Source: a virus
Taxonomy: Duplodnaviria; Caudoviricetes
Direction: 5' to 3' (one strand)
IMG/VR virus record: IMGVR_UViG_3300025892_000008
Length of the DNA: 64,000 nt
The notes under the pieces are model-generated. The model ran no database searches and had not been told where the DNA came from. It saw nothing but the letters and a program-made list of their open reading frames with translations. Below are positions 1,890 to 17,842 of the stretch, piece by piece; position 1 is the first letter of the stretch; the number at the start of each line of letters is the position of its first letter. The position numbers were made by a program, and so were the translations under genes.

Positions 1890-3319
1890 TGGATTTTTTC
1901 TACGACGGACAGATTAGAAGATATGTAACACAGTTTATGCGTATCTTTATCGGCTTTAAATATGAAGCAGGTAACGGCGATCAGCAATCTGTTCCTGTAA
2001 TGTACGGCGATTTGACACGCCAGGTAGCAAACATTATTAGAGAAAACTCTGAAAACAAATTGCCAACAGTACCTAGAATGGCAGCATATATTACTGGAAT
2101 GGACATTGATACAAGTAGATTAACTGATCCTACATTTGTAAGTAAAGTAAACATACGTGAAAGAAACTATAATGTAGACGAATCAGGAAATAGAGAATAT
2201 ACAGGCGCTCCAGGAAAGAATGTAACCGTAGAAAGATTGATGCCAACACCATATATGATGACATGTAAACTAGATATATGGACAAGTAATACAGATCAAA
2301 AATTACAATTGCTAGAACAAATAATGGTCTTGTTTAATCCTGCATTTGAAATACAAACTAACGACAACTACATTGACTGGACTAGTTTAAGTGTAGTAAG
2401 AATGACTGGAATGAATTTTAGTTCTAGAAGTATACCTGCTGGAACTGAGTCAGAAATTGACATTTGCTCAATAGATTTTGAAATACCAATGTATGTTTCT
2501 CCTCCTGCCAAAGTAAAAAAACTAGGTGTTGTAAGAAGCATAATAGCAAACATATTTACAGAAGAAGGTGATATACAAAACTTATCAAGTCTAGTTTACA
2601 ATCAGAAAGTTTCAAATGATGTATATGTAAATCCAAGATACCCTGTATTGTTATTCAAAGCAAATAATGGTAATCCTAATGATTATGACTTATCTATATT
2701 AGATCAGAATGCTGCAATACAAAGTTTAGGACTAGATAAAAAAGAATTTACAGATGATAAAAAACTTGACTGGAATGCTGTATTAGCAGCACTAGGAAGT
2801 TTTACAGAAGGTACTAGTACAATACATTTCCGTCAACCTAATGGTGAAGACATCACAGGAACATTTGCAATCAATCCTGTTGATAACTATATTCTCTTAG
2901 TAACAATTGATAAAGATTCTCCAGGATGGACAGAAAATACTTTACTTGTAAGTCCTCAATATCCTGACGGCAAGGGAACGTTTGATGCAATTGTAGATCC
3001 AACTACCTATAATCCTATTGCTAGATTAGGTACTATTCCAACAGGACATAGATTACTAATCTTAGAAGATGTAGCAGATAATGCTGATGGCTGGAAAAAC
3101 AACGACAGCACTAATACATCTATCAAAGCAAACAGTGTTGCTGAATGGAATGGAGCAAGTTGGGCAGTGGTATTTGATCCGGCTACTGTCGAAAATTTTA
3201 CATATCTCAGTAATATTACTACAGGAATACAGTATAAGTGGGATGGTATACAGTGGATTAAATCTTTCGAAGGCGAGTATGCACCAGGTTATTGGAGACT
3301 AGATCCTGAAGGTGCATAA
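1889..3319 (+). CDS. gp15: Tail terminator / sheath stabiliser gp15-like with C-terminal extension
   Basis: FFYDGQIRRYVTQF...VPVMYG...LPTVPRMA and PTPYMMTCKLDIWT..TDQKLQLLEQI motifs typical of T4 gp15 homologues. Confidence 0.8.
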   Translation: MDFFYDGQIRRYVTQFMRIFIGFKYEAGNGDQQSVPVMYGDLTRQVANIIRENSENKLPTVPRMAAYITGMDIDTSRLTDPTFVSKVNIRERNYNVDESGNREYTGAPGKNVTVERLMPTPYMMTCKLDIWTSNTDQKLQLLEQIMVLFNPAFEIQTNDNYIDWTSLSVVRMTGMNFSSRSIPAGTESEIDICSIDFEIPMYVSPPAKVKKLGVVRSIIANIFTEEGDIQNLSSLVYNQKVSNDVYVNPRYPVLLFKANNGNPNDYDLSILDQNAAIQSLGLDKKEFTDDKKLDWNAVLAALGSFTEGTSTIHFRQPNGEDITGTFAINPVDNYILLVTIDKDSPGWTENTLLVSPQYPDGKGTFDAIVDPTTYNPIARLGTIPTGHRLLILEDVADNADGWKNNDSTNTSIKANSVAEWNGASWAVVFDPATVENFTYLSNITTGIQYKWDGIQWIKSFEGEYAPGYWRLDPEGA

Positions 3320-3327
3320 GTAGTTTT

Positions 3328-3714
3328 ATGCAAAAGAGAGTAGGACTATTATATCTATCTAGAGATTCGCACAGAATACTTCTTATTTTAGAAAACGAAA
3401 AATGGACCGTACCAACATTTTCACTTGAAAATAGTGTAATACAAGATAGTGAAGATTTACAACAAAAATTTTCTAGAGGTAAAATAATACCTATAGAATT
3501 GTATCTTTCAAAAGACAAAGGTTTTGAGTACGGAACGTATATTTGTCTTGTAAAAGAAGAATTTATTACTGAAGAAATACCAACATTTTGTTGGGCTGAT
3601 TTAGGTTACCTGCCCAAGAATGTACACACTGGACTACGAAGTACATTAAATAATAGTCTTATACGTACAAAAATAGAAACTGTACTGGAGTTAGAAGATG
3701 CTGTCAATATATGA
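3328..3714 (+). CDS. Nudix-fold-like protein lacking a Nudix box
   Basis: VGLLYL...RILLIL...WTVP and C-terminal W..L..LP..VHTGL pattern resemble phage Nudix proteins; GGx5Ex7REUxEE is absent. ATAAGTA at 3316-3322. Confidence 0.4.
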   Translation: MQKRVGLLYLSRDSHRILLILENEKWTVPTFSLENSVIQDSEDLQQKFSRGKIIPIELYLSKDKGFEYGTYICLVKEEFITEEIPTFCWADLGYLPKNVHTGLRSTLNNSLIRTKIETVLELEDAVNI

Positions 3715-3970
3715 GTCTGAATCATTTCAAAATGATTATAACAATTACAAAAATAAAATTGAAAAAATTACAGATGAAAGTCTTAAAAATCAATTACAAA
3801 ATTTTCTTAATAAGTTAGTTGCACATGTAAAAGCATTTGACAAAGAGCATTCTGAAATGATATATTCTAAAAGTATCAGATTAGGAAACGATCACAAAGA
3901 CGGAATTGCTGAAGTAAGAAAAGTTATTGAGAGAAAACTTCGTGATTGGGATCAAATACAAAAAACTTAG
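3698..3970 (+). CDS. Hypothetical helical protein (90 aa)
   Basis: Overlaps the upstream gene; no recognisable motif. Confidence 0.55.
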   Translation: MLSIYESESFQNDYNNYKNKIEKITDESLKNQLQNFLNKLVAHVKAFDKEHSEMIYSKSIRLGNDHKDGIAEVRKVIERKLRDWDQIQKT

Positions 3971-5547
3971 ATTGAACCAAAGTTCTTAACAATTATTGCT
4001 CCTACCATTGCACCATGTAATGAACACTGATATCTATAAGTACCACTAATAGCAGATGGTATTTTCCAATATAACGTACCGCTTTCCTTACCTTGTGCAG
4101 CAGAACCAACACTACATGTTCCGTTAGTTGCTACATGAATCAATCCAGTACTGTAGTTAACACCTGACGAATTTTGAATAAGGAACGGATGACTAGAATC
4201 CATAGCACTAAGATTAAATGCAATAGTAGTTCCGTTAATTCCATATATTGTAGGATTGTCAGTAGATCCGTATTGATCAAATCTATATGAAGATGTACCA
4301 TTTGCAGTTACATCTAATCTAGTAATTGCTGGAAGATATAATTTATCTATTGTAAGTTGAGCAGTAATTGCATCTGACAATCCGCTAAACGCAGTAATAA
4401 TTGTTCCCGGTCCAGTAAATGTTACAATGTCCGATGCAGCGTTAGTTGTAATAGTAATGCCGCTGGCGCCTGCAAAGGTTACTGTATCAGTTGTTGTGTC
4501 AGCCTCTACATCACTTTGCCCTGTAACAGAAATTGTACTAAATGCATTTTGATTTGCATCGCCACCACCTGCTGACGCAGAAGGCACCCAATTAGATCCG
4601 TTCCATTGTAAAACATCGTCTGATGATGCTCCTGATGTATCTACATCACTAAGTGCATTTATGCTTGAACTACCAGTTAGATATGTTCCTAAATCACTTA
4701 TTTGACTTTCAGTAATACTTAATGCTGCTTGGTGCTGTGTTACACTTGACTCAGTAATATTTGTATTTGGTACATTTGCCCACGTAACTGCTGCTGTTAA
4801 GTCATTTGTTTCTGCAGATAGTGCACCAATACCTGCGGCAGTGGGAGGTGTAAATTTAAATTCTCCAGTACTATTGTTGTAACTAATTGCACCGTTACCA
4901 CTAGCACTGTTCTCAACACCTACACTTAAAGCCGATAACGCTAAAATTGTAGGTTTGTTATTTAAATTATTGTAATTAAGATAGTATGATCCGTCTTGAC
5001 CGTCAAGAGTATCTGCATCAGTACCACCGCCACCAGTAGTAGCATCAGTTCCTGGTGCCCACTTTGCTCCGTCCCATTTTAATACACTACCTGTACTTGG
5101 TGGTGATGTTGTTGTATCAACATCTGATAAAAAGTCTACACTAAATGTACTCATATTAACTGTTACAATATCTGAGTCTGTAGCAATAGCAGTTGCTATG
5201 TTAGTACCGCCTACTATATTAAGTGTATCATTTATACTTGCCGCTGCTGTTGAACCTTCATCAGCAGTTATAGTGCCAAATGCATTTCCGCCGCCGGCTG
5301 TACCATTAATCGTAATTGTATCGCCGCTAATTTCAGTAGTAATATTAGAACCACCAGTTACTGTTAAACTATCTGTAGGAATGTTAGCAATAGTAAATCC
5401 TGTATCAGCATTAAATCTTGTAAACACATTCGGGGCTGCTGCCGGAGAAGAAGTTACATTCCAAGTAGTACCATCATACTGCCAGGTAGTACTACCTTCT
5501 GTAAATGTTTCATTAAGTGCCGGTGTACCCGGAAAATTTATTGCCAT
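3967..5547 (-). CDS. Tail-fibre-like virion protein with C-terminal cupredoxin-like domain
   Basis: Thr/Ser/Gly-rich; repeated LSDVDT...VL(K/Q)W(D/N)G..W.P fibre segments; C-terminal SHPF...YRYQCSLHGAM. Confidence 0.65.
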   Translation of the reverse strand: MAINFPGTPALNETFTEGSTTWQYDGTTWNVTSSPAAAPNVFTRFNADTGFTIANIPTDSLTVTGGSNITTEISGDTITINGTAGGGNAFGTITADEGSTAAASINDTLNIVGGTNIATAIATDSDIVTVNMSTFSVDFLSDVDTTTSPPSTGSVLKWDGAKWAPGTDATTGGGGTDADTLDGQDGSYYLNYNNLNNKPTILALSALSVGVENSASGNGAISYNNSTGEFKFTPPTAAGIGALSAETNDLTAAVTWANVPNTNITESSVTQHQAALSITESQISDLGTYLTGSSSINALSDVDTSGASSDDVLQWNGSNWVPSASAGGGDANQNAFSTISVTGQSDVEADTTTDTVTFAGASGITITTNAASDIVTFTGPGTIITAFSGLSDAITAQLTIDKLYLPAITRLDVTANGTSSYRFDQYGSTDNPTIYGINGTTIAFNLSAMDSSHPFLIQNSSGVNYSTGLIHVATNGTCSVGSAAQGKESGTLYWKIPSAISGTYRYQCSLHGAMVGAIIVKNFGSI

Positions 5548-5558
5548 GTTCCTGCCCT

Positions 5559-8063
5559 CTATTCCTTTGTTATAGCAAATGCATTTGCACTTGCATATCT
5601 ACTATATATTATTTTTAAATCTTGTCCAAATGTACTTGTACTTATCTGATTATAGTCGGCATTTTGGCCTGTACTATACACAACACTTTTTGCATCTGCT
5701 AAAATTTTTGATTTTAATTGTGCCGGAGTAAGTGTTGAATCTGATTCTAGATGTAAACATAATAGTCCTGCAACTTGTGGTGCTGCCATAGATGTTCCGC
5801 TTATGCTCATTTGGTAAAAACTGCCATTGTCAAAATATGCTATCGGCGCAAACTTAGTGTTATTATATGGAGTACTACAAGCACTCATGATATCTGAACC
5901 TGGTGCCCATATATTACATCCTGGTCCTCTACTTGAAAAAATACTTGTTCTATCTTTTTCAGCACCGCTATCGTCTTGTGTAGTGCTATCTAAACTAGCA
6001 ACCATGTATGCATTTGAGCTATACGGTGAACTGCCTCTATGATAAGTTGTTGTACTTCCCTGCCATAATACATCATTATCATAATCAGTACCGCCAGATG
6101 CTTCTATTTTGTTATAGTTATTACCTGCTGCAATTACTACATGTATTCCTGCTGATACCATATCTTCTATTTCAGCATCGACTGATGCTACTCTGACACT
6201 CAGTTTACATGCTGACGAAGCGCCTAAGGTTGTTCTATTTTCATTTACTCCAGTTGCTGCTTCTAACGCTGCTCGAGTACTATATTCAACACCATATGTC
6301 CAGGCTGTTCCCCTGTATGTTCCGCTTGTTGGATCTCCTGTCCTTGTAGTTCCGTATCCCCAACTCATGTTAACAACCGTGGGCCTATTGTTTGATTTAT
6401 TATTGTGCCAAAGTCTAATTGTATCAAATGCGTTAGTGATACTAATGCCATCATTTGGATCTAATGTACCTTCTAGTCCACCTAATTTTTGAGCATATAT
6501 TCTTGCATTTTTTGCCCAGCCAAATGTTTTACCTACGGAAATACCTGCACAATGAGTGCCGTGGCCGTCATAGTCTGTGTAAAAGTTTGAGTCTTGTGTT
6601 TCACCTACAATACCACTGTCAGCAAACCAATCAATTTCTTGCACTCGTGATGCAGACGGTTGTGCTACATAGCCAGATACTCCAGCATCATTATCTTGAA
6701 ATATACGTTTTAGTATATTAAAATCTGGTTTACTAAGTACTGGTGCAAAGTATTTGTTAAACATGGCATAACCTAGTGGATTATTTGCTAACATACCTGC
6801 AGGTGTTTTTAAAGTATCATCCCATTCAGGACTAAGACTTTCTCCGTCCCAAAACTCACTCATATCCCACATTGACCAATTTACTAAGTAAGTATATTCT
6901 TTATATGCTACTACGGCTGCATCAGAATCTGTTGCCCAATCAGTAGCATAACCACTTGGATCATATAACCCTGCGTCAATTGCTTCTTTCATAGCAAGAT
7001 GTAATTCTGTAGTCGTCCAAGAAAAACTTGGGTTACCATTTAATATCATCAGCAATGTTTCCATTGGAACTTGTGTTGCACTTCCTTCTACAGCCCCCGG
7101 AATACCAAAGTTGTGTATTGTATGGAACAAGTGTTCCATAATTTCTTCAATGTCTCTATCACTCTCACTAGGATCAGGACCGCTTGTGTTTTTATACCAA
7201 ACCATATCATTAACTGCATGACTGTCTAAAAAATCTGTATATCCAGAGTACTGTGCCGCGCCAGCATCTGTCAACCAATTTGGTGTATATGATGCTCCGC
7301 CACCATAACCAATTCGTTGTGCTGTTGGAGTTCCTGCATGTGTTGTTCCTGCATCACCTTTAAGTGTTGCAATTAAATTTTTCTGTTGTGTAATATCAAT
7401 GCTATCTCCGTTAGGATCAATTAATAACTTTACAGCCTGCGCTGTTTTCTTTACCCATTCATCTGGTACAGTTGTTTGTCCGCCGACCGCTCCTGCTGCT
7501 ACAAGTTTTACACCCCTTACAGTTAAACTTCTGTCAAAAACTGCTCCATTGGTTGCATCACTTCCTAATGCACCACTAGCATATTCAGTTGTGTTAGGCA
7601 TGTAAAACTCAGGATGGTCTGCTTGTATTCCGCTATCTTGTACAATAAAGTCTACACCTGTTCCGTCTAAAGCGTAAAGATGATCTCCTGATAATGTAGT
7701 TGCATCAGCAAACGTATTTGTTGCTTCATCGCATCTACGCAATCCCCAGTTTACCCAAGTTGCGTTATTTCCAGACTGTCTTTGAAAAGTTGCTGTTTGA
7801 CTTGCATGAAGTCCTATACTAATATCATCTCTTTGATCTGGTGGAATCTCTACAGCAACAACTCTTTCGTCTTGTTCTAAAGTTTCTGCTTCTTCGTCTG
7901 TGAGCATCCAATGTGTCATACGCTTTGATCCAATTCTTGGATTGGCTACTGTAACAGCTCTATTAGGTATCTGTCCTGAACCTGTATCTGCGGCTACTTC
8001 AGCATCAAATGCTTCAAGATCAACATCGGCTTTTACAATTACTACGTATTCTTTTTCACTCAT
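5559..8063 (-). CDS. Subtilisin-like S8 serine protease with I9-like prodomain and ~315-aa inserted domain
   Basis: Catalytic motifs QDSG (Asp), GHGTHCAG (His), AAGN (oxyanion Asn) and GTSMAAPQVAG (Ser). Confidence 0.9.
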   Translation of the reverse strand: MSEKEYVVIVKADVDLEAFDAEVAADTGSGQIPNRAVTVANPRIGSKRMTHWMLTDEEAETLEQDERVVAVEIPPDQRDDISIGLHASQTATFQRQSGNNATWVNWGLRRCDEATNTFADATTLSGDHLYALDGTGVDFIVQDSGIQADHPEFYMPNTTEYASGALGSDATNGAVFDRSLTVRGVKLVAAGAVGGQTTVPDEWVKKTAQAVKLLIDPNGDSIDITQQKNLIATLKGDAGTTHAGTPTAQRIGYGGGASYTPNWLTDAGAAQYSGYTDFLDSHAVNDMVWYKNTSGPDPSESDRDIEEIMEHLFHTIHNFGIPGAVEGSATQVPMETLLMILNGNPSFSWTTTELHLAMKEAIDAGLYDPSGYATDWATDSDAAVVAYKEYTYLVNWSMWDMSEFWDGESLSPEWDDTLKTPAGMLANNPLGYAMFNKYFAPVLSKPDFNILKRIFQDNDAGVSGYVAQPSASRVQEIDWFADSGIVGETQDSNFYTDYDGHGTHCAGISVGKTFGWAKNARIYAQKLGGLEGTLDPNDGISITNAFDTIRLWHNNKSNNRPTVVNMSWGYGTTRTGDPTSGTYRGTAWTYGVEYSTRAALEAATGVNENRTTLGASSACKLSVRVASVDAEIEDMVSAGIHVVIAAGNNYNKIEASGGTDYDNDVLWQGSTTTYHRGSSPYSSNAYMVASLDSTTQDDSGAEKDRTSIFSSRGPGCNIWAPGSDIMSACSTPYNNTKFAPIAYFDNGSFYQMSISGTSMAAPQVAGLLCLHLESDSTLTPAQLKSKILADAKSVVYSTGQNADYNQISTSTFGQDLKIIYSRYASANAFAITKE

Positions 8064-9586
8064 TATACTAAGCTCGCCCAGCCACCGTTTTCGTATACCT
8101 GTGCTTTGTTCAACGTAGTGTCATATATCATATCACCGTTTGCAGATGTTAATGCATTCTTTTCTGTTGTAGTAAAACTTGGTAATCTAAATGGAGCACC
8201 GGTAACTCTTACACCGTCTGTGGTTGTAAGTGTTATTGTACTTGCACTTGTTAAGTTAGTAACACCAAGTCCAGCAGTTAATGATGCACTTATGTTAGGA
8301 ACAGTTAATGTATTAGTAGTACTGTTGTACGTAAAATCACTGTCGCCGGTAAATGCACCTGCATTATTAAATTGTACTTCAGTTGTACTGCCGCCTGGTG
8401 CACCTGTGTTTGCCGCCCAGGCATAATCTGAACCGTTCCAACTTAGTACATAACCACTTGTAGGGTTTGATTGATTTAGATGTGCATCAACATCTGTGTT
8501 TGCATATCCATCTGTGATACCATACCCTGCGAGTGTAGTTGGTTTAGTTGTTAATGAAGCAAACGCTCCATCAAACGCATCTGTGATACCATACCCTGCT
8601 ATTGTAGTTGGTTTACTAGTAATTGCAGAGAAAGCAGGAATAGCATCTGTTATTCCATATCCTGCTATTGTAGTAGGCTTACCTGTTAAATCAGCAAAGG
8701 CTGTCGATGCCGACACATCGCCAAACGAGAAGTTACCAGCACCGTCTGTTTTCAGTGCCTGTCCGTTTGTTCCGTCTGCAATACCTAATCCTAATAGTGT
8801 TCCTGGAGCAGGAGCAGCAGGTTGTACCCATTGACTGCTATCAGTATCTTGTACATACACATATAGTTTTGCACTTGTGCTATTATACCAAATATCTCCT
8901 TGTGTAGGACTGCTAGGAGCAGTATCAGACACTGCAAGACTTGCGCCTCCGCCGCCGGCACCTGGCTCGGCTACAGTTACACTATTCCCCATACCACTAT
9001 GATTTTTACACCATATATAAAGTGTTGATGGAGTGTTACTTGTAATTGTTATCTGTACAGAACGTGTAGTTGCAGTGGCAAACTTTGCCCAATATTGTGT
9101 TTTGTTTACAGTAACTCCATCTATTATATAAAGAACGTTATTAAGATATGCAGTACCGCTACCTAATTCGCCGTTAGCATCATCTGAACTAAAGTTTAAA
9201 GGATGTTGGTTTAATGTTGTTCCGTTACTGTTAGGAAAATATAAATTTGTTAAATCTGTTTGATCAAATACATATGTATAACCAACAACTAGTGTTAGTT
9301 CAGGATTTTCAACTCCGTTATAATAATATACATTTGCTGTATCTCCAGCATTTCTTGCAACTGTTGTACTAAAAGTAACTGTTGCAACACCTGAAGATGT
9401 AATTTGTTTTGCTACGTTTGTAGGTGTTAGAATATGTGTTCCGCCAATGTTGGAACCATCGAATATTCTAAGTGATTGATTATCCTTATCGAAGAAAATT
9501 TCACCTCGAGAGCCTGATTTTCTATCAAGATAATCTTCATCTCTAGGTACTATTCTTACGCCAGGAAAAATTGGAATTAGTGACAT
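8063..9586 (-). CDS. Tail-fibre-like virion protein with cupredoxin-like domain and three KPTT(I/L)AGYGITD repeats
   Basis: QHPL...LYIWCKNHSGMG; PTTLAGYGITD repeats known from tail-fibre shafts; SDTAP....GDIWYNS fibre motif. Confidence 0.65.
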   Translation of the reverse strand: MSLIPIFPGVRIVPRDEDYLDRKSGSRGEIFFDKDNQSLRIFDGSNIGGTHILTPTNVAKQITSSGVATVTFSTTVARNAGDTANVYYYNGVENPELTLVVGYTYVFDQTDLTNLYFPNSNGTTLNQHPLNFSSDDANGELGSGTAYLNNVLYIIDGVTVNKTQYWAKFATATTRSVQITITSNTPSTLYIWCKNHSGMGNSVTVAEPGAGGGGASLAVSDTAPSSPTQGDIWYNSTSAKLYVYVQDTDSSQWVQPAAPAPGTLLGLGIADGTNGQALKTDGAGNFSFGDVSASTAFADLTGKPTTIAGYGITDAIPAFSAITSKPTTIAGYGITDAFDGAFASLTTKPTTLAGYGITDGYANTDVDAHLNQSNPTSGYVLSWNGSDYAWAANTGAPGGSTTEVQFNNAGAFTGDSDFTYNSTTNTLTVPNISASLTAGLGVTNLTSASTITLTTTDGVRVTGAPFRLPSFTTTEKNALTSANGDMIYDTTLNKAQVYENGGWASLV

Positions 9587-9612
9587 ATTTTATATTCTCT
9601 CCGTTACCATAA

Positions 9613-9668
9613 TATTTATCCATATGCGTCATTATTATTTTTTGTGGGTTACAGTAACTAGATAAATA
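9613..9668. promoter_or_regulatory. Divergent late promoters (ATAAATA minus 9613-9619; plus 9662-9668)
   Basis: Exact ATAAATA boxes upstream of the fibre/protease operon and of the heptose operon. Confidence 0.75.
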
Positions 9669-9684
9669 ATAAACTACACATATA

Positions 9685-10464
9685 ATGGATAAAATGCATA
9701 CACGTTTAGAAGGAAAAATTAAAAAAGGTTGGGGCTATGAATTAATATGGGCCACTAATGAAAAGTACTGTGGAAAAATTATGGTATTTGAAAAAGTAGG
9801 TGCTAAATTTAGCATGCATTTTCATAAAGAAAAAGAAGAAACATGGTTTGTAAATTCGGGTAAATTTTTGCTTAAATGGATTGATACTAAAGATGCAACG
9901 GTACACACAAAAGAATTAGTAGAAGGCGACAAATGGCATAATCCTCCTTTACAGCCACATCAACTAGAGGCACTTGAAGAAATGAGTGAGATATTTGAAG
10001 TAAGCACAGCCGACAGTGTCGAAGACAACTACAGAGTTTTTCCAGGTAGCAGTCAGCAGTCAGACAAAAAAATTATTGTAAATGGTAGTTTTGATATTAT
10101 TCATAAAGGGCATATTGAATTATTAAACTATGCAAAATCATTAGGGGATCATTTGTTAGTTGCTATAGATAGTGATAATAGAATTAAACAATTAAAAGGT
10201 TCAGACAGACCTATTAATTCTTTAGATGAAAGACTAAACTTACTATCTAATCTAAAAGCAGTTGATGATATTTCTTATTTTGATTCAGAACAAGAACTAG
10301 TAGATATTATAAAAAAGTATAATCCTGATATAATGGTAAAAGGCAGTGATTATAAAAATCAAAGAATTGTTGGCAAGGAATATTGCAAAGCAATCGAATT
10401 CTATGAGATAAATGATGGTTATTCAACAACAAAAAAATTACAAGATATTATTAATCGGGGATAG
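9685..10464 (+). CDS. hldC: Fusion: cupin (PMI/lyxose-isomerase-like) + heptose-1-phosphate nucleotidyltransferase (HldE/RfaE domain II)
   Basis: N-terminal SMHFHKEKEE...H cupin metal motif; C-terminal NGSFDIIHKGH, DSD..IKQLKG..RPI, VKGSDY and GYSTT motifs. Confidence 0.85.
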   Translation: MDKMHTRLEGKIKKGWGYELIWATNEKYCGKIMVFEKVGAKFSMHFHKEKEETWFVNSGKFLLKWIDTKDATVHTKELVEGDKWHNPPLQPHQLEALEEMSEIFEVSTADSVEDNYRVFPGSSQQSDKKIIVNGSFDIIHKGHIELLNYAKSLGDHLLVAIDSDNRIKQLKGSDRPINSLDERLNLLSNLKAVDDISYFDSEQELVDIIKKYNPDIMVKGSDYKNQRIVGKEYCKAIEFYEINDGYSTTKKLQDIINRG

Positions 10465-11167
10465 TTGTACTGACGAGTACCATTATGGTAGTACCGATCG
10501 TATAAGTCCCGAAGCACCCGTTCCTGTATTTCAATATAAAAATACAAAAACAAATCCTGGCATGGCTGCTAATGTTAATGAAAACTTATTAGCATTTGGG
10601 TGCGATGTAGAGTTTGTTACCAACAAAGAACAAATAACTAAATCAAGATATATTGATTACAGATCAGGACAGCATTTAATAAGAGTTGACAAAGAAGACA
10701 AAGTCAAATCTTGCAACGTTGAATTTCATAATTTAGACTATGATGCTATAATAATAAGTGACTATAACAAAGGATTTGTAACTGAAGATTTAATTATAAG
10801 TCTACGTAGTAAATTTAAAGGACCTGTATTTGTTGATACTAAAAAACTTTATCTTGATAAATTTGAAGGCTGCATACTTAAAATAAACGATCTTGAATAT
10901 AATCGTGCAAAAACCTTTTGTAGCGATTTAATAGTAACAAAAGGTAAACAAGGTGCTACATACAAAGGTAATACTTATAATGCACCTGTAGTTGAAGTTC
11001 ACGATGTATGCGGTGCCGGTGATACATTTTTATCTGTGCTTGCATATTCATATTTAAACTGCAACAACATTGAACAGTCAATTATGCACGCTAACAATGC
11101 CGCTGCACTATCTGTACAGCATAGCGGAGTATACGTGCTTACAGAAGAGGATTTAAAACAAATATGA
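10412..11167 (+). CDS. hldA: PfkB-family heptose-7-phosphate kinase (HldE/RfaE domain I)
   Basis: IGDSCTDEY.YG...RISPEAPVPV, GMAANV..NL and DVCGAGDTF motifs. Confidence 0.88.
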   Translation: MMVIQQQKNYKILLIGDSCTDEYHYGSTDRISPEAPVPVFQYKNTKTNPGMAANVNENLLAFGCDVEFVTNKEQITKSRYIDYRSGQHLIRVDKEDKVKSCNVEFHNLDYDAIIISDYNKGFVTEDLIISLRSKFKGPVFVDTKKLYLDKFEGCILKINDLEYNRAKTFCSDLIVTKGKQGATYKGNTYNAPVVEVHDVCGAGDTFLSVLAYSYLNCNNIEQSIMHANNAAALSVQHSGVYVLTEEDLKQI

Positions 11168-11976
11168 TAATATTAGTTACAGGAGATACTGGGTTTATTG
11201 GAAGACATCTAATTGATAAACTAAAAACAGAACACGAAGTTCATGGCTATGATTATAATGAAAATCATAAACCTTGTATTGACGGATATGATTGGGTAAT
11301 ACATCTAGGAGCAATATCAGATACTACAGAAAGAGATGTTGACAAGATTATGTTACAAAACTATGAATTTTCTAAATGGATATTCAAAGAATGTAATTCT
11401 AAAGGTGTAAATTTTCAATATGCATCTAGTGCAAGTGTATATGGACCATATGAAAAGTTTGGAGAAGATGATCCTAAACAACCTCAGAGCCCTTATGCTT
11501 GGAGCAAGTATCTATTTGATAGATGGATATTGCAGCAAAAACATAACGTATGTGTACAGGGTATGAGATATTTTAATGTATACGGACCTAGAGAAGAACA
11601 CAAGGGCACACAGGCAAGTCCTGTAACAAAGTTTACAAAACAAGCAAAGGAAGAAGGTGTTATTACTTTGTTTGAAAACAGTGACAAGTACCTAAGAGAT
11701 TTTATCTTTGTAGGCGATGTGTGTGACATACATGAGCAAATGATGCTGCATGTTAAAAAGTCTGGCTTGTACAATATTGGTACAGGCTCTGCAACTAGTT
11801 TCCAAACAGTTGCAGAAATAATTGCAAAAAAATATAATGCAGATATAAAGTATATTCCAATGCCAGAGGAATTACAAGGGCAATATCAAGAATATACCTG
11901 TGCAGATATAACTAAGTTACTAAATATTTTTGATATACAGTTTAAAACTGTAAAAGAATATATTGAAGGTGTCTAA
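11164..11976 (+). CDS. hldD: ADP-L-glycero-D-manno-heptose 6-epimerase
   Basis: VTGDTGFIG, HLGAISDTTE, YASSASVYG, YAWSK and RYFNVYGPRE.HKG.QAS motifs. Confidence 0.88.
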   Translation: MIILVTGDTGFIGRHLIDKLKTEHEVHGYDYNENHKPCIDGYDWVIHLGAISDTTERDVDKIMLQNYEFSKWIFKECNSKGVNFQYASSASVYGPYEKFGEDDPKQPQSPYAWSKYLFDRWILQQKHNVCVQGMRYFNVYGPREEHKGTQASPVTKFTKQAKEEGVITLFENSDKYLRDFIFVGDVCDIHEQMMLHVKKSGLYNIGTGSATSFQTVAEIIAKKYNADIKYIPMPEELQGQYQEYTCADITKLLNIFDIQFKTVKEYIEGV

Positions 11977-12596
11977 ACAAAAGATGCTTTTATACCTGCA
12001 GACGATGTAATTTCTTTACATGCTGCATTTTCTATTTCAGGATCTGGTAAAGAACTAGCAAATGCCCACAAGTTATCAAACACCATAACTTTTCTTGCAA
12101 GGTTTTTGTAGGTAAATTTCTTTAACTTTTTTTCTGTTTCTTCTCCATACCCGGTACGAACTAATATAGGTGTTGCTCCTATTTTTTCTGCTGCTTTTAA
12201 ATCTGTTAATTTATCTCCAACATAAAATCCGCCTTTAAATTTTAAGTTGCATTCAGATTCTGCTTTTTTAAACATACCAATATTTGGTTTAGCAAACATA
12301 TCGTTCTTCTGGCTTGTATGACTATAGTAAATTCCATCTATGCTATCACAACCTGCTTCTCCTAGTAAATTAAGCATGTAATCATGTACAACAGCAACTT
12401 CTTCAGTAGTCATTATACCTTTACTAACTCCGGCTTGATTAGTTAGTACAACAATATTGTAACCTTTTTTTCTAAGAAGTGTTACCGCTTCTATACTATT
12501 TTCTATAGGTTTAAATTGCATAGGATGAGTAACATAAGTTCCAAGATCTTCGTTTATTGTTCCGTCTCTATCTAATCCTATAGTAATATTATTCAT
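11973..12596 (-). CDS. gmhB: D,D-heptose-1,7-bisphosphate phosphatase (HAD family)
   Basis: LDRDGTIN, VVLTNQAG, KPNIGM and VGDKLTDL motifs. Confidence 0.88.
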   Translation of the reverse strand: MNNITIGLDRDGTINEDLGTYVTHPMQFKPIENSIEAVTLLRKKGYNIVVLTNQAGVSKGIMTTEEVAVVHDYMLNLLGEAGCDSIDGIYYSHTSQKNDMFAKPNIGMFKKAESECNLKFKGGFYVGDKLTDLKAAEKIGATPILVRTGYGEETEKKLKKFTYKNLARKVMVFDNLWAFASSLPDPEIENAACKEITSSAGIKASFV

Positions 12597-13119
12597 CTAT
12601 TGATATATCCATGTTCCATGAAATAATTGTTTTTGTTTCTTCTGTATTATTAACAGGAGCTCTATGTATAACCCAACTAGGAAATGTAACTATATCTCCT
12701 TCGTGTACGTCAAATGTATGTGTATCTTTAGTTAACGGATTAATCCATTCTGTTTGTGCATCTTCTGGCAAGTTTACGTAATAAACATTTGTAAAGTTGT
12801 TACTGTGTGTATGCCATGCGTGCTTGCCGCCTTTTGCATATTGTTGAAACCAAATTTCAGTAATGCCAAATGTTTTATATCCCATTTCTTCACACCACTT
12901 ATTAATGTGCGTAGAAAGAGAAGGATTTATTAGTTTCAACCACTCTCTATCTCCATCATATCTTGCAGTATTCCAATCACATTTAACAATATCACTGTCG
13001 GGTGCAGTCATATGTTCTGCATTTTCTTGTGCATGAATAGCATCTAGTACTTGCTGTTTTAGTTGATTGTGTTCCTTAAATGGTCTTACAGTAATAGGAA
13101 ACGGAATAATATCATCCAT
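12589..13119 (-). CDS. 2OG-Fe(II) oxygenase (marine-phage type)
   Basis: WFQQY..GG.HAWHTH...VYY...EGDIVTFPSWVIH; the usual distal Arg position reads KTIISWN. Confidence 0.7.
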   Translation of the reverse strand: MDDIIPFPITVRPFKEHNQLKQQVLDAIHAQENAEHMTAPDSDIVKCDWNTARYDGDREWLKLINPSLSTHINKWCEEMGYKTFGITEIWFQQYAKGGKHAWHTHSNNFTNVYYVNLPEDAQTEWINPLTKDTHTFDVHEGDIVTFPSWVIHRAPVNNTEETKTIISWNMDISIDE

Positions 13120-13733
13120 TAGTATAAGTTACCTTTTCTTTTAACAATTATATTTGATGAAAACACAACTCTAGGTTCAGATGTTTGATTAAAATGTACA
13201 TAGTGTTCTAAACAAGAAGGAAACATTAGTAATAATCCTTCTTTCATTTCAGGGTAGAAAGCATTAGGATAATCATTCATAGGATCTAATTCTAAATACT
13301 TTAAATGGTTTGATAAGTTAGGTGTCCTAAAAACAAATTGTCCTGCTTCTGGACTAGGCTGTTTTAAAATTACAACACAAGAAAACGCTGGCACGTTAGT
13401 TGTAATATGATCATGTAATTGTTGATGATCGTGTTGCTCATGTACGTTATACCAAGTCTCTATGTCTACACTATAAGGAAATTTAAACAAATATGAATCA
13501 ATATAATCTTGTATATAAGGTGATGGTAGTAATGTATCATTCCATTTTTTAAAAAAATCTGAATCGTCCCAACGTTGAGATAGATTCTTAGAAATTTTAC
13601 TAGCATTATTAGAACTTCCTGTATTACTTCCATCTAAAATTAACGGTAGGTAATAATCCTGTAAACTTTTAAGATCCTGTGGTTCTAATTCTTTTATACC
13701 AACTGGATATCCTTCAAGTGAAAGTTTTAACAT
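13119..13733 (-). CDS. 2OG-Fe(II) oxygenase
   Basis: WYN...HDH...FSCVVIL...EGLLLMFPSCLEH.V...RVVFSSN. Confidence 0.8.
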   Translation of the reverse strand: MLKLSLEGYPVGIKELEPQDLKSLQDYYLPLILDGSNTGSSNNASKISKNLSQRWDDSDFFKKWNDTLLPSPYIQDYIDSYLFKFPYSVDIETWYNVHEQHDHQQLHDHITTNVPAFSCVVILKQPSPEAGQFVFRTPNLSNHLKYLELDPMNDYPNAFYPEMKEGLLLMFPSCLEHYVHFNQTSEPRVVFSSNIIVKRKGNLY

Positions 13734-14461
13734 GTTTCTAATATTTCCTTTGTCATTATACTAGTTTTAAATCCAGATGTTAAGTCAATACTTTCGCCTG
13801 TATTAAAAAAATTAATTATTTTACTTGCTAAAATTTTATGATTAACTTCAGAAAAATGATTAAATCTATTGTCACCGGTTTTTTCATGGTATGCTATAGA
13901 AGTTTTTTCATTGTCAAATTCTGATCCGGATGCTTCACACAAATTCCCTTCTATACCTTGAATATTGTGAAAGCCTGGTAAAATTAAGCACTTAATATTT
14001 TGTTCTCCATATAATTTTGTTCTAAGAGTTAATGCATCAAGTAGTGTATGATAATGCAAAATGAGGCGCCTTTCTGAATATAAATGTCGTTTATACATTT
14101 CTAATGCAGCATACTCTTGTTCAGTAATATCTACACCTGGAGTCATTTGTGTTGCCATATGAACAGCCATATATGGTTTATTTTCAAAGAACCATTCTCT
14201 ATATAAATTAGTTAATTGTATTATAACACAGTCTCCTGATTTGAACAACAATTCTTTTTCACGTAATTGCTGATAAATGTAATCATTAGAGCAGCCTAAA
14301 ATAGCATAGTTAGTATGAGGATCGTTACTTATAGCATCACTTACTATAGTTGTCCAACTTTTTTCTAAAGGTAGATATGTTACTTCAGTCTTATCTGGAC
14401 CAAATACTTCGTCCATATGGTTCTGGGGGATTGAAAAACTATCTCCAAAAATATGCAACAT
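13727..14461 (-). CDS. SGNH/GDSL-like protein
   Basis: N-terminal IFGDSFS, G.SNDYI block and C-terminal NHFS..NH. Confidence 0.5.
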   Translation of the reverse strand: MLHIFGDSFSIPQNHMDEVFGPDKTEVTYLPLEKSWTTIVSDAISNDPHTNYAILGCSNDYIYQQLREKELLFKSGDCVIIQLTNLYREWFFENKPYMAVHMATQMTPGVDITEQEYAALEMYKRHLYSERRLILHYHTLLDALTLRTKLYGEQNIKCLILPGFHNIQGIEGNLCEASGSEFDNEKTSIAYHEKTGDNRFNHFSEVNHKILASKIINFFNTGESIDLTSGFKTSIMTKEILETC

Positions 14462-15081
14462 TATACTGCGCCTGTTTCTAACAAGATATTAAAAGACATA
14501 CTAATTCTATCTCCGTTAGTTTTGTTTTCATTAACACTGTGGTCTAAAAATCCTGGAAACAAAATTAGTCTACCTTGCTCAGGCGAAAAAGAATTTTCAT
14601 GTGCAATAGAACTTCCAATAGGATTGCATTTTAACGCTTTCAGTGTATTTCTAAAAACAATATCTCCGTCATCTCCACTAGTTTTAAACCAATATACTCC
14701 ACTAATATGGGCATTACCATGATCATGAATATGCGAGGAAAGTCCAGGCTTGTTTAAAGTTAACCATGAAGAAGTCATCGCTGCTTTGTAGGCAGGTTGG
14801 ACATTCATTGCTGCCATATAATTTACACAGTGGTGCATAATAGTTTCACCAGTTGTTTTCATATTTTCTAATTGCAATAAATGCTCAAAAAAGTCGCCTT
14901 GGTTAGATAGATATTGTGAAGATGAACCCCAATTTGGATTTTGTCCCCAACTTCCTTCGTTATATAGTTTATCAACTATAGGCTGTAATTCGTTTTGCAC
15001 ATCTGTATATGCTTGGTTTTCTAATTTATAGGTATATAGAGGTGTTGGAAATAATTGAAAAATTTGTCCTTCGACATCCAT
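14461..15081 (-). CDS. 2OG-Fe(II) oxygenase
   Basis: SWLTLNKPG...HIHDH...ISGVYW...GRLILFPGFLDHSV...DRISMSFN. Confidence 0.85.
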   Translation of the reverse strand: MDVEGQIFQLFPTPLYTYKLENQAYTDVQNELQPIVDKLYNEGSWGQNPNWGSSSQYLSNQGDFFEHLLQLENMKTTGETIMHHCVNYMAAMNVQPAYKAAMTSSWLTLNKPGLSSHIHDHGNAHISGVYWFKTSGDDGDIVFRNTLKALKCNPIGSSIAHENSFSPEQGRLILFPGFLDHSVNENKTNGDRISMSFNILLETGAV

Positions 15082-15083
15082 AG

Positions 15084-16910
15084 TTACTGCCTTTCATTAT
15101 GATCTATATTTACTAGCATTTTCGTTGCAGGAAAATAGATATAATTTATTCCTGAATTATAAAGAGTACGCATAGCATCGTCAATAGTTTCAACTAGTGG
15201 CTCGCCGCCTAAATTAAAACTAGTATTAAACAATGCAGGTACTCCTGTTTGGTTTTTAAATTCTTTAATCAAATTGTACCAATGTTTGTTTTGTTCTTTA
15301 GTAACTGTTTGTATTCTACATGTATCGTCTACGTGTATAACTGCTGGTATTTTTTCTTTTACGCCAGGCTGACAATTGACAGCATACATCATACTAGGTG
15401 AATCTTCCATCCCACGTAAATCAAACCAATCATGTACATCATCCTGTAATACAGTTGCAGCAAACGGTCTAAAATATTCACGCTTCTTAACCAAGTTAAC
15501 AAAATCTTTGCCGTTTGGATCTGTTGGGTCATACATTAAAGAACGATTACCTAATGCACGAGGACCGCTTTCTCCTCTTTCTTGATATAGTGCTACAATA
15601 TTTTTGTTTCTAATAGTATCTATAACTTGTTTATAATCTACATCTGTTGTTACATTACCATTGTATTTCTTTGCAGTTTCTCTAATTATATCTTCAGTAA
15701 TATTTTGTACTGGTCCTAAAAATAAGTTTTCATCTTTAGTTCTTAATTTGTTATCTTGAGATGTAAGATAATAATGATAAAATGCTGCGCCCATTGCAGT
15801 ACCTGCATCATTGCTAACAGGTTCTACATATATTTTTACACCTTCTGGTAAATGTTTTAAAAAGAAATAATTAGCAACACAATTTAAAGCATAGCCGCCG
15901 CTGATAACAATATTTTTATTACCAGTGCGTTCAATTGATTTTAATATTAAATCAAGTACTAGTTGTTGAGATTCTACTTGAACATTATATGCCATGTTTC
16001 TGCGTGATGGAAGTAGTGTAACATCTTCTCTGTCAGATTTTCTAAGCAGTTCTTGAATTCTGTCTTGTTCATCTTGGTTGTCTGGATCTTTAGCAGATCG
16101 AATTATATCACTCGGATCATATATTCTATCTCTAATCTCTGGAAATTCAGATTCATCTACCCATGCTCCATTAGGATATGTACAAGTAAATAAATCTTTG
16201 TTGCCACCAAAAGCATTAGTGTAAATCTTAGGTGCTTTGTTTGGTTCACCATATGGAAATAGTCCCATTGTTTTACCGGCTTCAATTGAATCAAATCCGC
16301 AAAATCTAGTTACTGCTTCGTATGCTTTAACAATACCTGCTTTATCGTTTATCATTACTTCTGTAGCACTACCGTCGGCATTATAGTGCTCAGTTCTCCA
16401 AGGCCCGTTTCCTCCAAAATGCTTATAAATTTCTGTAAACGTTGCAGGATATGCGCAATCGTATATACTTTCAACCTCAAACATAGTTTGTCCATCTGGT
16501 CGTTCTACAAATGTTCCTGCTCCATCAACAATTATAGCACTTGCCTTTTCAAATCCTGATCTATAAAATGCTAGTGCAGCATGACTTCTGTGATGTTGCG
16601 CATGATATTTAACAACCTGTGTTTCAGGGTCTTCAATTAATCTTAATTTTCTAGCAAGTGCAGTATATACATCTTGACGGACGTAATCGTTTAGAGGTTC
16701 GTCTGCGTCTTGCGTATGAGATATTGCAAGATAATCAATCTTATCTGTATAATCTAAAATTTTAATCATACTTGCAAGAGGTCCTCCGTCGTATTTGTAA
16801 CGGGATAATCTTTCTTCTTCAATTGCAAATACAATTTCGCCGTCTTTTAAAAGACAAACACCTGCATTGTGCCCTCTAGCAATTCCTGCAATGTAGCCTG
16901 TTTTTCTCAT
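15084..16910 (-). CDS. O-carbamoyltransferase (CmcH/NodU/TobZ family)
   Basis: GHN...EEERLSR.K, HHRSHA, VDGAG, GKTMGL..YG, SGGYALNCVAN, NDAGTAMGAA, ESGPRALGNRS, KREYFRPFA, HVDDTCRIQTV and NTSFN motifs. Confidence 0.92.
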   Translation of the reverse strand: MRKTGYIAGIARGHNAGVCLLKDGEIVFAIEEERLSRYKYDGGPLASMIKILDYTDKIDYLAISHTQDADEPLNDYVRQDVYTALARKLRLIEDPETQVVKYHAQHHRSHAALAFYRSGFEKASAIIVDGAGTFVERPDGQTMFEVESIYDCAYPATFTEIYKHFGGNGPWRTEHYNADGSATEVMINDKAGIVKAYEAVTRFCGFDSIEAGKTMGLFPYGEPNKAPKIYTNAFGGNKDLFTCTYPNGAWVDESEFPEIRDRIYDPSDIIRSAKDPDNQDEQDRIQELLRKSDREDVTLLPSRRNMAYNVQVESQQLVLDLILKSIERTGNKNIVISGGYALNCVANYFFLKHLPEGVKIYVEPVSNDAGTAMGAAFYHYYLTSQDNKLRTKDENLFLGPVQNITEDIIRETAKKYNGNVTTDVDYKQVIDTIRNKNIVALYQERGESGPRALGNRSLMYDPTDPNGKDFVNLVKKREYFRPFAATVLQDDVHDWFDLRGMEDSPSMMYAVNCQPGVKEKIPAVIHVDDTCRIQTVTKEQNKHWYNLIKEFKNQTGVPALFNTSFNLGGEPLVETIDDAMRTLYNSGINYIYFPATKMLVNIDHNERQ

Positions 16911-17842
16911 TATTGTTTTCCTAAAGTATCTTTAATTTGTTTTACAATTTTTTTCTTAGTGTCTGAGCTCAGTTTCATTAAGTTTTCATTCTGTCTATCA
17001 ATCCTAATATCTATTGCTACTCTTAAAGGAGAATATTTTCTTTCACCTATTCCGTTGTCTATAATTTTTAGTGTAGTGCTTTCCGGATAGGAAATGTTTT
17101 CAGGAAATGTACTACCTATAACTACTGTGCCAGGTTTTTTAAGAGCGTGAACAACATGTTGTCCTACTGAATCACAACCTAAGAAATAATCCGCAGCATT
17201 GATAATTGCAGTCCATTGTAATAAACTTACTTCTTCTGGAAACATTACATTAAGATTTTTATCAGTTGGTATTTTCATAGAGCTCATTAGTATGACAGCA
17301 TAATCTTTATTCAATTCTTCAAGTAAGTCTATAATATCATCTACTTCAAACGACCTGCCGCTTTCATCAACAATTACACCGCCATGTATTGTAGCAGTAG
17401 ATCCAAATGGTTGAAATATTATAACTTTATCTTTTTTGAAATGTCTTTTTGCTTCTGCTACTAGCTCTTCTCCTGTTGCAATATCTTTTTTTCCTACAAA
17501 GAGTTCGTTATATTCTTTTGTTTCTGGAATTGTTTCAGGTGGATAATCATAGTTAATCAACATGTCAAAGGATTGAACTAGATTGGCTCGTTGAGTAAAA
17601 TACGCATTAAGTTTGTAAGGTTCAGGTGTAATGATTTCTCTATCTTTCAATTTGTCAAAAAGATTAGGATCATTAGCAGGAAAGGTATTGTTTACTAATA
17701 TTTTGCTAGTAAGATATAAATCAATCCAACCTTCTACAATAATAGGTGCTGTTGGATCTATATTTTTTAAATGATATTCTAGTGCTGGAATCGCACAAAG
17801 AACGCGACCTGCGCCACCGTTAATAAAGAATGCTTTTTTCAT
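16910..17842 (-). CDS. GT-B glycosyltransferase, family 9 (heptosyltransferase-like)
   Basis: GGAGRVLCAIPAL N-terminus; IIFQPFGS; SLLQWTAIINAADYFLGCDSVGQHVVHALKKPGTVVIG matches the GT9 C-terminal signature. Confidence 0.75.
   Translation of the reverse strand: MKKAFFINGGAGRVLCAIPALEYHLKNIDPTAPIIVEGWIDLYLTSKILVNNTFPANDPNLFDKLKDREIITPEPYKLNAYFTQRANLVQSFDMLINYDYPPETIPETKEYNELFVGKKDIATGEELVAEAKRHFKKDKVIIFQPFGSTATIHGGVIVDESGRSFEVDDIIDLLEELNKDYAVILMSSMKIPTDKNLNVMFPEEVSLLQWTAIINAADYFLGCDSVGQHVVHALKKPGTVVIGSTFPENISYPESTTLKIIDNGIGERKYSPLRVAIDIRIDRQNENLMKLSSDTKKKIVKQIKDTLGKQ

Follow-up and report, generated by a model that had tools for sequence, protein, structure and literature searches.

The HldC protein encoded in the stretch of phage DNA that was analysed here (64 kb in length, hereafter the window) carries a cupin domain at its N-terminus, and it is quite probable from our comparative analysis that this domain is a metal-dependent aldose-ketose isomerase which performs the reaction of GmhA (EC 5.3.1.28) on an unrelated fold. 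At the level of the family, i.e. an unnamed group of cupins of about 120 aa that resemble phosphomannose isomerase (PMI), we consider it likely that the members constitute a non-homologous phosphoheptose isomerase, which would enable marine T4-like phages (including cyanophages), DPANN archaea and further microbes of small genome size to synthesise ADP- or GDP-heptose from sedoheptulose-7-phosphate (S7P) on their own. Activated heptoses are building blocks of the LPS core and of glycoproteins, and the innate immune system of mammals recognises ADP-heptose. To our knowledge, GmhA is regarded as the sole entry to the nucleotide-activated heptoses. Full-text literature searches yielded no description of a cupin as S7P isomerase or as a replacement of GmhA, and the only paper found that connects cupins and heptose concerns RmlC-like GDP-heptose epimerases (PMC7949155). 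New for the window is the fusion of the cupin with HldC in a marine phage lineage, in parallel to the PMI-GMP enzymes of GDP-mannose synthesis. If our reading is true, annotation that is based on GmhA badly undercounts heptose producers and pathway predictions would be corrected for thousands of sequences from marine phages and small-genome microbes; abundant ocean phages would carry the full route from an intermediate of the Calvin cycle and pentose-phosphate pathway to ADP-heptose, in hosts with LPS that is devoid of heptose; and the joining of an isomerase to a nucleotidyltransferase would represent an enzyme logic that has arisen twice.

The fusion gene and the other relevant features of the window are the following:

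9662-9668, plus strand: putative T4-late-promoter-like box (ATAAATA), read from the sequence, 17 nt 5' of the ATG
9685-10050, plus strand: cupin domain (aa 1-122), candidate S7P isomerase (Pfam, AF2, hhalign, ligands)
10051-10068, plus strand: linker SQQSDK between cupin and HldC (comparison with the unfused relative L019)
10069-10464, plus strand: HldC domain, D-glycero-beta-D-manno-heptose 1-phosphate adenylyltransferase (TIGR02199, PF01467)
10412-11167, plus strand: HldA, heptose-7-phosphate kinase (TIGR02198, E 5e-44; PfkB, E 1e-14)
11164-11976, plus strand: HldD, ADP-glyceromanno-heptose 6-epimerase (TIGR02197, E 8e-75)
11973-12596, minus strand: GmhB, heptose 1,7-bisphosphate 7-phosphatase of the full-size HAD-IIIA type (NF006506, E 3e-41)
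16910-17842, minus strand: possible GT9-like heptosyltransferase of 310 aa (PF01075, E 0.0099; 15.7 bits, below the cut-off of 22)

Positions 9685-10464 on the plus strand translate as one uninterrupted open reading frame of 259 aa, in which residues 1-122 form the cupin and residues 129-259 form HldC. Pfam recovers Cupin_2 at residues 38-97 (E 9e-5) and CTP_transf_like (PF01467) at residues 131-226 (E 8e-19), and the NCBIfam model rfaE_dom_II/HldC (TIGR02199) matches residues 125-255 over profile positions 8-142 of 144 (E 2e-36); the score of 124.9 bits is under the strict equivalog cut-off of 181.5 and the match is full-length. The HxGH-type motif of the nucleotidyltransferase reads GSFDIIHKGH. 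In the case of the cupin, the metal ligands are found in the string H45-F-H47-K-E-K50-E-E52 and in H92 (codons at 9817-9819 for H45, 9823-9825 for H47, 9838-9840 for E52 and 9958-9960 for H92), and all four are kept in 44 of 60 diverse members of the family. The AF2 model of the domain (pLDDT 95) is a small all-beta barrel. The preliminary description had stated that HldC carries an N-terminal metal cupin and that the window encodes every step of the ADP-heptose pathway except GmhA. Both statements hold: the Cupin_2 match is accompanied by a full metal site, and HldA, HldC, HldD and GmhB were all recovered, without an SIS-fold GmhA. HldA and HldD directly follow the fusion gene, the 3' end of which is overlapped by the start of HldA (10412), and GmhB converges from the minus strand; the HldD score against TIGR02197 is 252 bits (cut-off 274.6). 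A tblastn search with E. coli GmhA found no counterpart in the 64-kb window (best E 11), which represents part of a genome.

Among the other products of the window, which derives from a marine T4-like phage, are a gp15-type sheath stabiliser, chaperones for tail fibres and numerous 2OG-Fe(II) oxygenases. The closest cultured relatives of the heptose genes are found in cyanomyophages, at 40-50% identity; a megablast search of positions 9000-13000 against phages gave no match. The product of 16910-17842 is a possible user of ADP-heptose, as judged from its sub-threshold match to GT9, and tail-fibre chaperone genes adjoin its gene. The minus-strand region that separates GmhB from a NodU/CmcH-type carbamoyltransferase (15084-16910) contains, at 12589-15081, three paralogous genes for 2OG-Fe(II) oxygenases (PF13759) together with a gene for a 244-aa protein without known family; these oxygenases could decorate heptose or a fibre protein. 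Within the tail/fibre region, an 834-aa protein (5559-8063, minus strand) contains a subtilase domain (Peptidase_S8) at residues 483-794.

Kinship of the cupin with the manno-specific cupin isomerases, to which the preliminary description had appealed, is borne out at the profile level for type II PMI and is suggested for D-lyxose isomerase. As reference for type II PMI served the C-terminal cupin of E. coli CpsB/ManC, a protein that is annotated in K-12 only as guanylyltransferase. The profile of the cupin family aligns end to end, over 100 columns, with CpsB residues 368-470 (hhalign; Prob 78%, E 1.8e-5), such that H45 pairs with Gln, H47 with His, E52 with Glu and H92 with His. Motifs that do not belong to the generic cupin signature agree as well (WG, K31, EV, D114 and R117), and type II PMI is matched both by the WG.E motif near the N-terminus and by the EVST..D.YR motif near the C-terminus. 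Within a set of 60 diverse family members, PF01050 matches 26 (E <= 0.01) and the D-lyxose isomerase family PF07385 matches 24. The window protein has no PF01050 match at E 0.01; two fusion relatives exceed the cut-off of this Pfam family (31 and 24.8 bits versus 23.6). The NCBIfam models return WbuC (TIGR04366) for 40 of 60 members at E <= 0.01 (best E 3.8e-8) and GMP_PMI for 27 of 60; the window cupin scores 18.4 bits against TIGR04366, under the cut-off of 42. The PDB matches to the cupin profile include the lyxose isomerases 2y0o (E 6e-5, 41 residues only) and 7nzo (E 8e-4), and the best PDB matches by sequence are the cupins of oxalate decarboxylase and quercetinase, which share generic cupin motifs only. 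A relation with RmlC is absent (hhalign to E. coli RfbC, Prob 0.2).

Structural comparison ranks the CapF cupin highest (Z 15.9; rmsd 2.1 over 111 residues), followed by KdgF (14.8), the phosphomannose isomerase of Thermococcus (14.7) and D-lyxose isomerase (13.3-13.5). As many cupin families lie within 1-2 Z of each other (Foldseek, VIA-align), the fold has no discriminating power, and the comparison of profiles tells more about the kinship of the cupin than the structure searches do.

The likeness to the type II PMI domain (PF01050, TIGR01479) thus comprises end-to-end homology with aligned ligands, an analogous presumed chemistry (i.e. the conversion of a ketose phosphate to a manno-configured aldose phosphate) and a junction with the nucleotidyl-transfer enzyme of the own pathway. 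Nevertheless, the window cupin belongs to a separate family: its first ligand is His instead of Gln, its presumed substrate has seven carbons instead of six, and its partner is the HIGH-motif cytidylyltransferase-type HldC, whereas that of the PMI-GMP enzymes is a GT-A-type GMP, with the domains in reversed order. The D-lyxose/D-mannose isomerases (PF07385; 2Y0O, 7NZO, 3KMH), which show the top identity among solved structures (23-25%), are likewise metal cupins with lyxo- or manno-configured aldoses as products, but they act on unphosphorylated sugars, occur outside heptose operons and have a length of 170-230 aa with extra elements, the window domain being 50-100 aa shorter. CapF/WbuC, finally, where the cupin is the domain of a nucleotide-sugar C3-epimerase, superposes best with the window cupin, but at 15% identity; here, too, a metal cupin acts in a sugar-nucleotide pathway beside an SDR enzyme.

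Both PMI and lyxose isomerase convert a ketose to a manno- or lyxo-configured aldose via a metal-bound enediolate, and GmhA catalyses the homologous reaction on a seven-carbon sugar. By analogy, we infer that the cupin depends on a metal and converts S7P to D-glycero-D-manno-heptose-7-phosphate. A divalent metal on H45, H47, E52 and H92 would bind O1 and O2 of the open-chain sugar and stabilise a cis-enediolate, as in the type II phosphomannose isomerases and D-lyxose isomerases, and the conserved residues K31, K50 and R117 are candidate holders of the phosphate. HldA would then add the 1-phosphate and GmhB take off the 7-phosphate, after which the HldC half of the same polypeptide would adenylylate the sugar and HldD epimerise C6. 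Since these remaining steps are encoded beside the cupin, we propose that the phage may make ADP-heptose without heptose enzymes of the host. The fusion would in this respect resemble the bifunctional PMI-GMP enzymes of GDP-mannose synthesis, which also combine step 1 with nucleotidyl transfer, on a different nucleotidyltransferase fold.

The genomic association of the cupin in phages is in line with such a role. HldA is present in 31 cyanophage records of the phage isolate collection, each of which also contains the cupin, and none of the 35 phage records in that collection that carry the cupin has a GmhA-like match; true GmhA is present in other phages, e.g. Cr30. Moreover, the SIS_2 model found no match in the complete genomes of five cupin-bearing phages (P-TIM68, Bellamy, S-T4, S-CAM1 and P-SSM2), so that the absence of gmhA elsewhere in the genome, proposed in the preliminary description as a check, was found in five of five complete genomes and in every one of the 35 records. 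In each of 80 related IMG/VR loci the cupin sits among heptose genes, with HldD in 80, HldA in 79 and HldC in 79 of them, and with GmhA within 10 kb of the cupin in none (0/80). The cassettes occur in at least seven gene orders, and on archaeal-MAG contigs the order is cupin-HldD-HldA-GmhB-HldC. In its minimal form the cyanophage cassette consists of HldC, HldA, a mini-HAD protein, the cupin and HldD, that is, five genes for five steps, with no isomerase candidate besides the cupin. A further marine T4-like cassette, which is related (L008-L011, 3495-7405), comprises genes for a NUDIX protein, an HldA::HldC fusion (407 aa), a 104-aa protein, HldD, a 233-aa protein of unknown function and the cupin.

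In the Synechococcus phage Bellamy, the cupin is flanked by HddA (E 7e-83) on one side and on the other by an HddC-like guanylyltransferase, beyond which lie a GMD-like dehydratase and an RmlD-like reductase. The cassette corresponds to a GDP-heptose-type route, which has only the isomerase and phosphatase steps in common with the ADP route. It spans positions 2844-8774 of its locus (L003) and resembles a GDP-6-deoxyheptose cassette, in a genome without an SIS protein; its full content is a class II aldolase, a mini-HAD protein, two unknowns, HddA, the cupin and the HddC-like, RmlD-like and GMD-like proteins. Cyanobacterial LPS has been reported, in a review, to lack heptose (PMC4390846), and the hosts of cyanophages are therefore unlikely to supply the isomerase step, for which the phages would need an enzyme of their own. 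Two MAGs with a cupin cassette also hold SIS proteins on other contigs, namely G003 (E 1e-33) and G006 (an SIS_2 protein of 206 aa, E 7e-15); the explanation may lie in phage contigs that were mis-binned or in other SIS paralogues.

The relation between the cupin and GmhA can be followed across the phylum of one cassette-bearing archaeal MAG, for which 151 genomes were searched with the cupin profile and with models of HldA and GmhA. A strong HldA is present in 36 of the 151 genomes, of which 11 have the cupin but not GmhA, 18 have GmhA but not the cupin, seven have neither and none has both. The mutual exclusion is associated with a one-sided Fisher p of 5.3e-5, and the restriction of the cupin to HldA-positive genomes (11 of 11) with a p of 4e-8, both of which overstate the independence of the observations because the genomes are related; even so, the pattern as such is clean. 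One genome (G101) combines the cupin with a weak SIS protein (87 bits). The archaeal GmhA mostly adjoins HldA or is fused to its C-terminus (proteins of 506-510 aa), and in two genomes the cupin is fused at the same position of the kinase, yielding HldA::cupin proteins of 446 and 448 aa. The two families, which are mutually exclusive in the sampled archaeal genomes, thus share their place in the pathway and in the operon as well as the fusion partner and position, i.e. the C-terminus of HldA. Nevertheless, they are not related in fold: GmhA (LpcA; TIGR00441, PF13580) is an alpha/beta SIS domain, whereas the window domain adopts an all-beta cupin barrel in which the metal site comprises three His and one Glu; it lacks sequence similarity to GmhA and, given its all-beta AF2 model, falls outside the SIS fold. 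The proposal in the preliminary description of a non-orthologous GmhA is strengthened accordingly by a cupin that is constant in heptose cassettes of various gene orders, excludes GmhA and is found fused to the kinase at the position where GmhA otherwise is. The interpretation of the cupin as a substitute for GmhA is thereby well supported by comparison, the action on S7P being its predicted component.

The main rival explanation holds that the cupin is a CapF/WbjC- or WbuC-like metal-dependent nucleotide-sugar epimerase or keto-isomerase on ADP- or GDP-heptose, which makes a modified heptose, possibly together with the SDR enzyme HldD, while the isomerase step is provided by the host. This is a serious alternative because the CapF cupin tops the structural ranking and because WbuC matches were obtained, in fact for more family members than GMP_PMI matches; in addition, the neighbourhood of a GMD-like dehydratase and an RmlD-like reductase in Bellamy is a setting as in Campylobacter, where RmlC-like cupin C3/C5 epimerases are used on GDP-heptose (PMC7949155). 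Yet an RmlC-type relation is what the profile comparison fails to detect, and the WbuC matches are all far under the cut-off. An epimerase would leave unexplained why none of the 36 HldA-containing archaeal genomes has both the cupin and GmhA and why HldA::cupin and HldA::GmhA fusions occur in parallel, observations that point to a step before nucleotide activation. It would also require that one and the same cupin serves ADP-beta- and GDP-alpha-heptose routes, that the minimal five-gene cassettes do without any isomerase candidate of their own, and that the missing step is supplied by cyanobacterial hosts that lack LPS heptose. On balance, we regard an epimerase as improbable.

The two other rivals fit the genomic context even less. 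That type II PMI and D-lyxose/D-mannose isomerase are the nearest families with a name, and that many relatives bear the JGI label 'mannose-6-phosphate isomerase-like', would be expected if the cupin were a plain phosphomannose, lyxose or mannose isomerase which feeds or drains pools of C6 or C5 sugars, with an incidental link to heptose. Such an incidental link is very unlikely, given that HldA, HldC and HldD accompany the cupin in 79-80 of the 80 viral loci, that it has been fused to HldC, HldA and a phosphatase, that it is confined to HldA-positive genomes in the sampled archaeal phylum and that no adjoining phosphomannomutase or GDP-mannose pyrophosphorylase was seen in any locus read. A role outside the chemistry of the pathway, either as a module for regulation or scaffolding that binds a sugar or a metal, or as an oxygenase, has the lowest probability of all. 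It could be suggested by the 'cysteine dioxygenase' labels in RefSeq, by the oxalate decarboxylase and quercetinase cupins at the top of the PDB matches and by one relative that is joined to an Asp/Asn hydroxylase-type domain, but those PDB matches span the generic motifs only, the extra motifs align with type II PMI, and the exclusion of GmhA and the equivalence of the fusion slot would be left without explanation.

Regarding the origin of the fusion, a stand-alone cupin is the ancestral state, and the junction with HldC is young and confined to the lineage of the window. About 3,385 clusters (at 90% identity) match the cupin domain, and the great majority of its close homologues are stand-alone proteins with a length of about 125-135 aa. 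The cupin::HldC fusion is retained in only three of the 80 nearest IMG/VR loci (L049-L051, 94-99% identical), to which can be added record G001, a 31-kb fragment of 96% identity that keeps the same open frame. In the unfused locus L019, which has the same gene order, the stop codon of the cupin and the ATG of HldC overlap in different frames at the position of the linker. By this comparison, the linker SQQSDK is the merged stop/start overlap of two formerly separate genes, and the fusion a recent merger of coupled neighbour genes into one frame. Although an A7 run is present at the cupin/HldC junction of the window, an artefact of this homopolymer can be rejected, since the three IMG/VR contigs and G001 keep the frame with different junction codons; by the same token, the run is not the cause of the fusion. 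More distant relatives include cupin::HldC, HldC::cupin, HAD-phosphatase::cupin and HldA::cupin fusions.

The analysis also bears on current annotations. The cyanophage genes labelled 'phosphoheptose isomerase' encode mini-HAD phosphatases of about 100-115 aa with the motifs DxDGT, T/S, K and DD, and were for that reason rejected as the true isomerase of these phages; they are probably stand-ins for GmhB, as their motifs suggest. The following loci encode such proteins, with lengths of 102-115 aa:

L002:6748-7086, mini-HAD gene labelled 'phosphoheptose isomerase'
L003:3434-3742, same label
L004:9915-10262, same label
L005:8104-8427, same label
L006:8089-8433, same label

The cyanophage homologues of the cupin are in turn mislabelled in RefSeq as 'cysteine dioxygenase', and both errors would be fixed if the proposed function is true. 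Lastly, a sub-clade of the family (P0133, P0156, P0179, P0193, P0198 and P0216) has Lys in place of E52 and has lost H45 and/or H92. It was considered as a counter-example and rejected, as its members neighbour NUDIX or glycosyltransferase genes and are not found in heptose cassettes; the sub-clade seems to be a paralogue. The ligand-less P0198 also follows a NUDIX gene, in L012 and L013.
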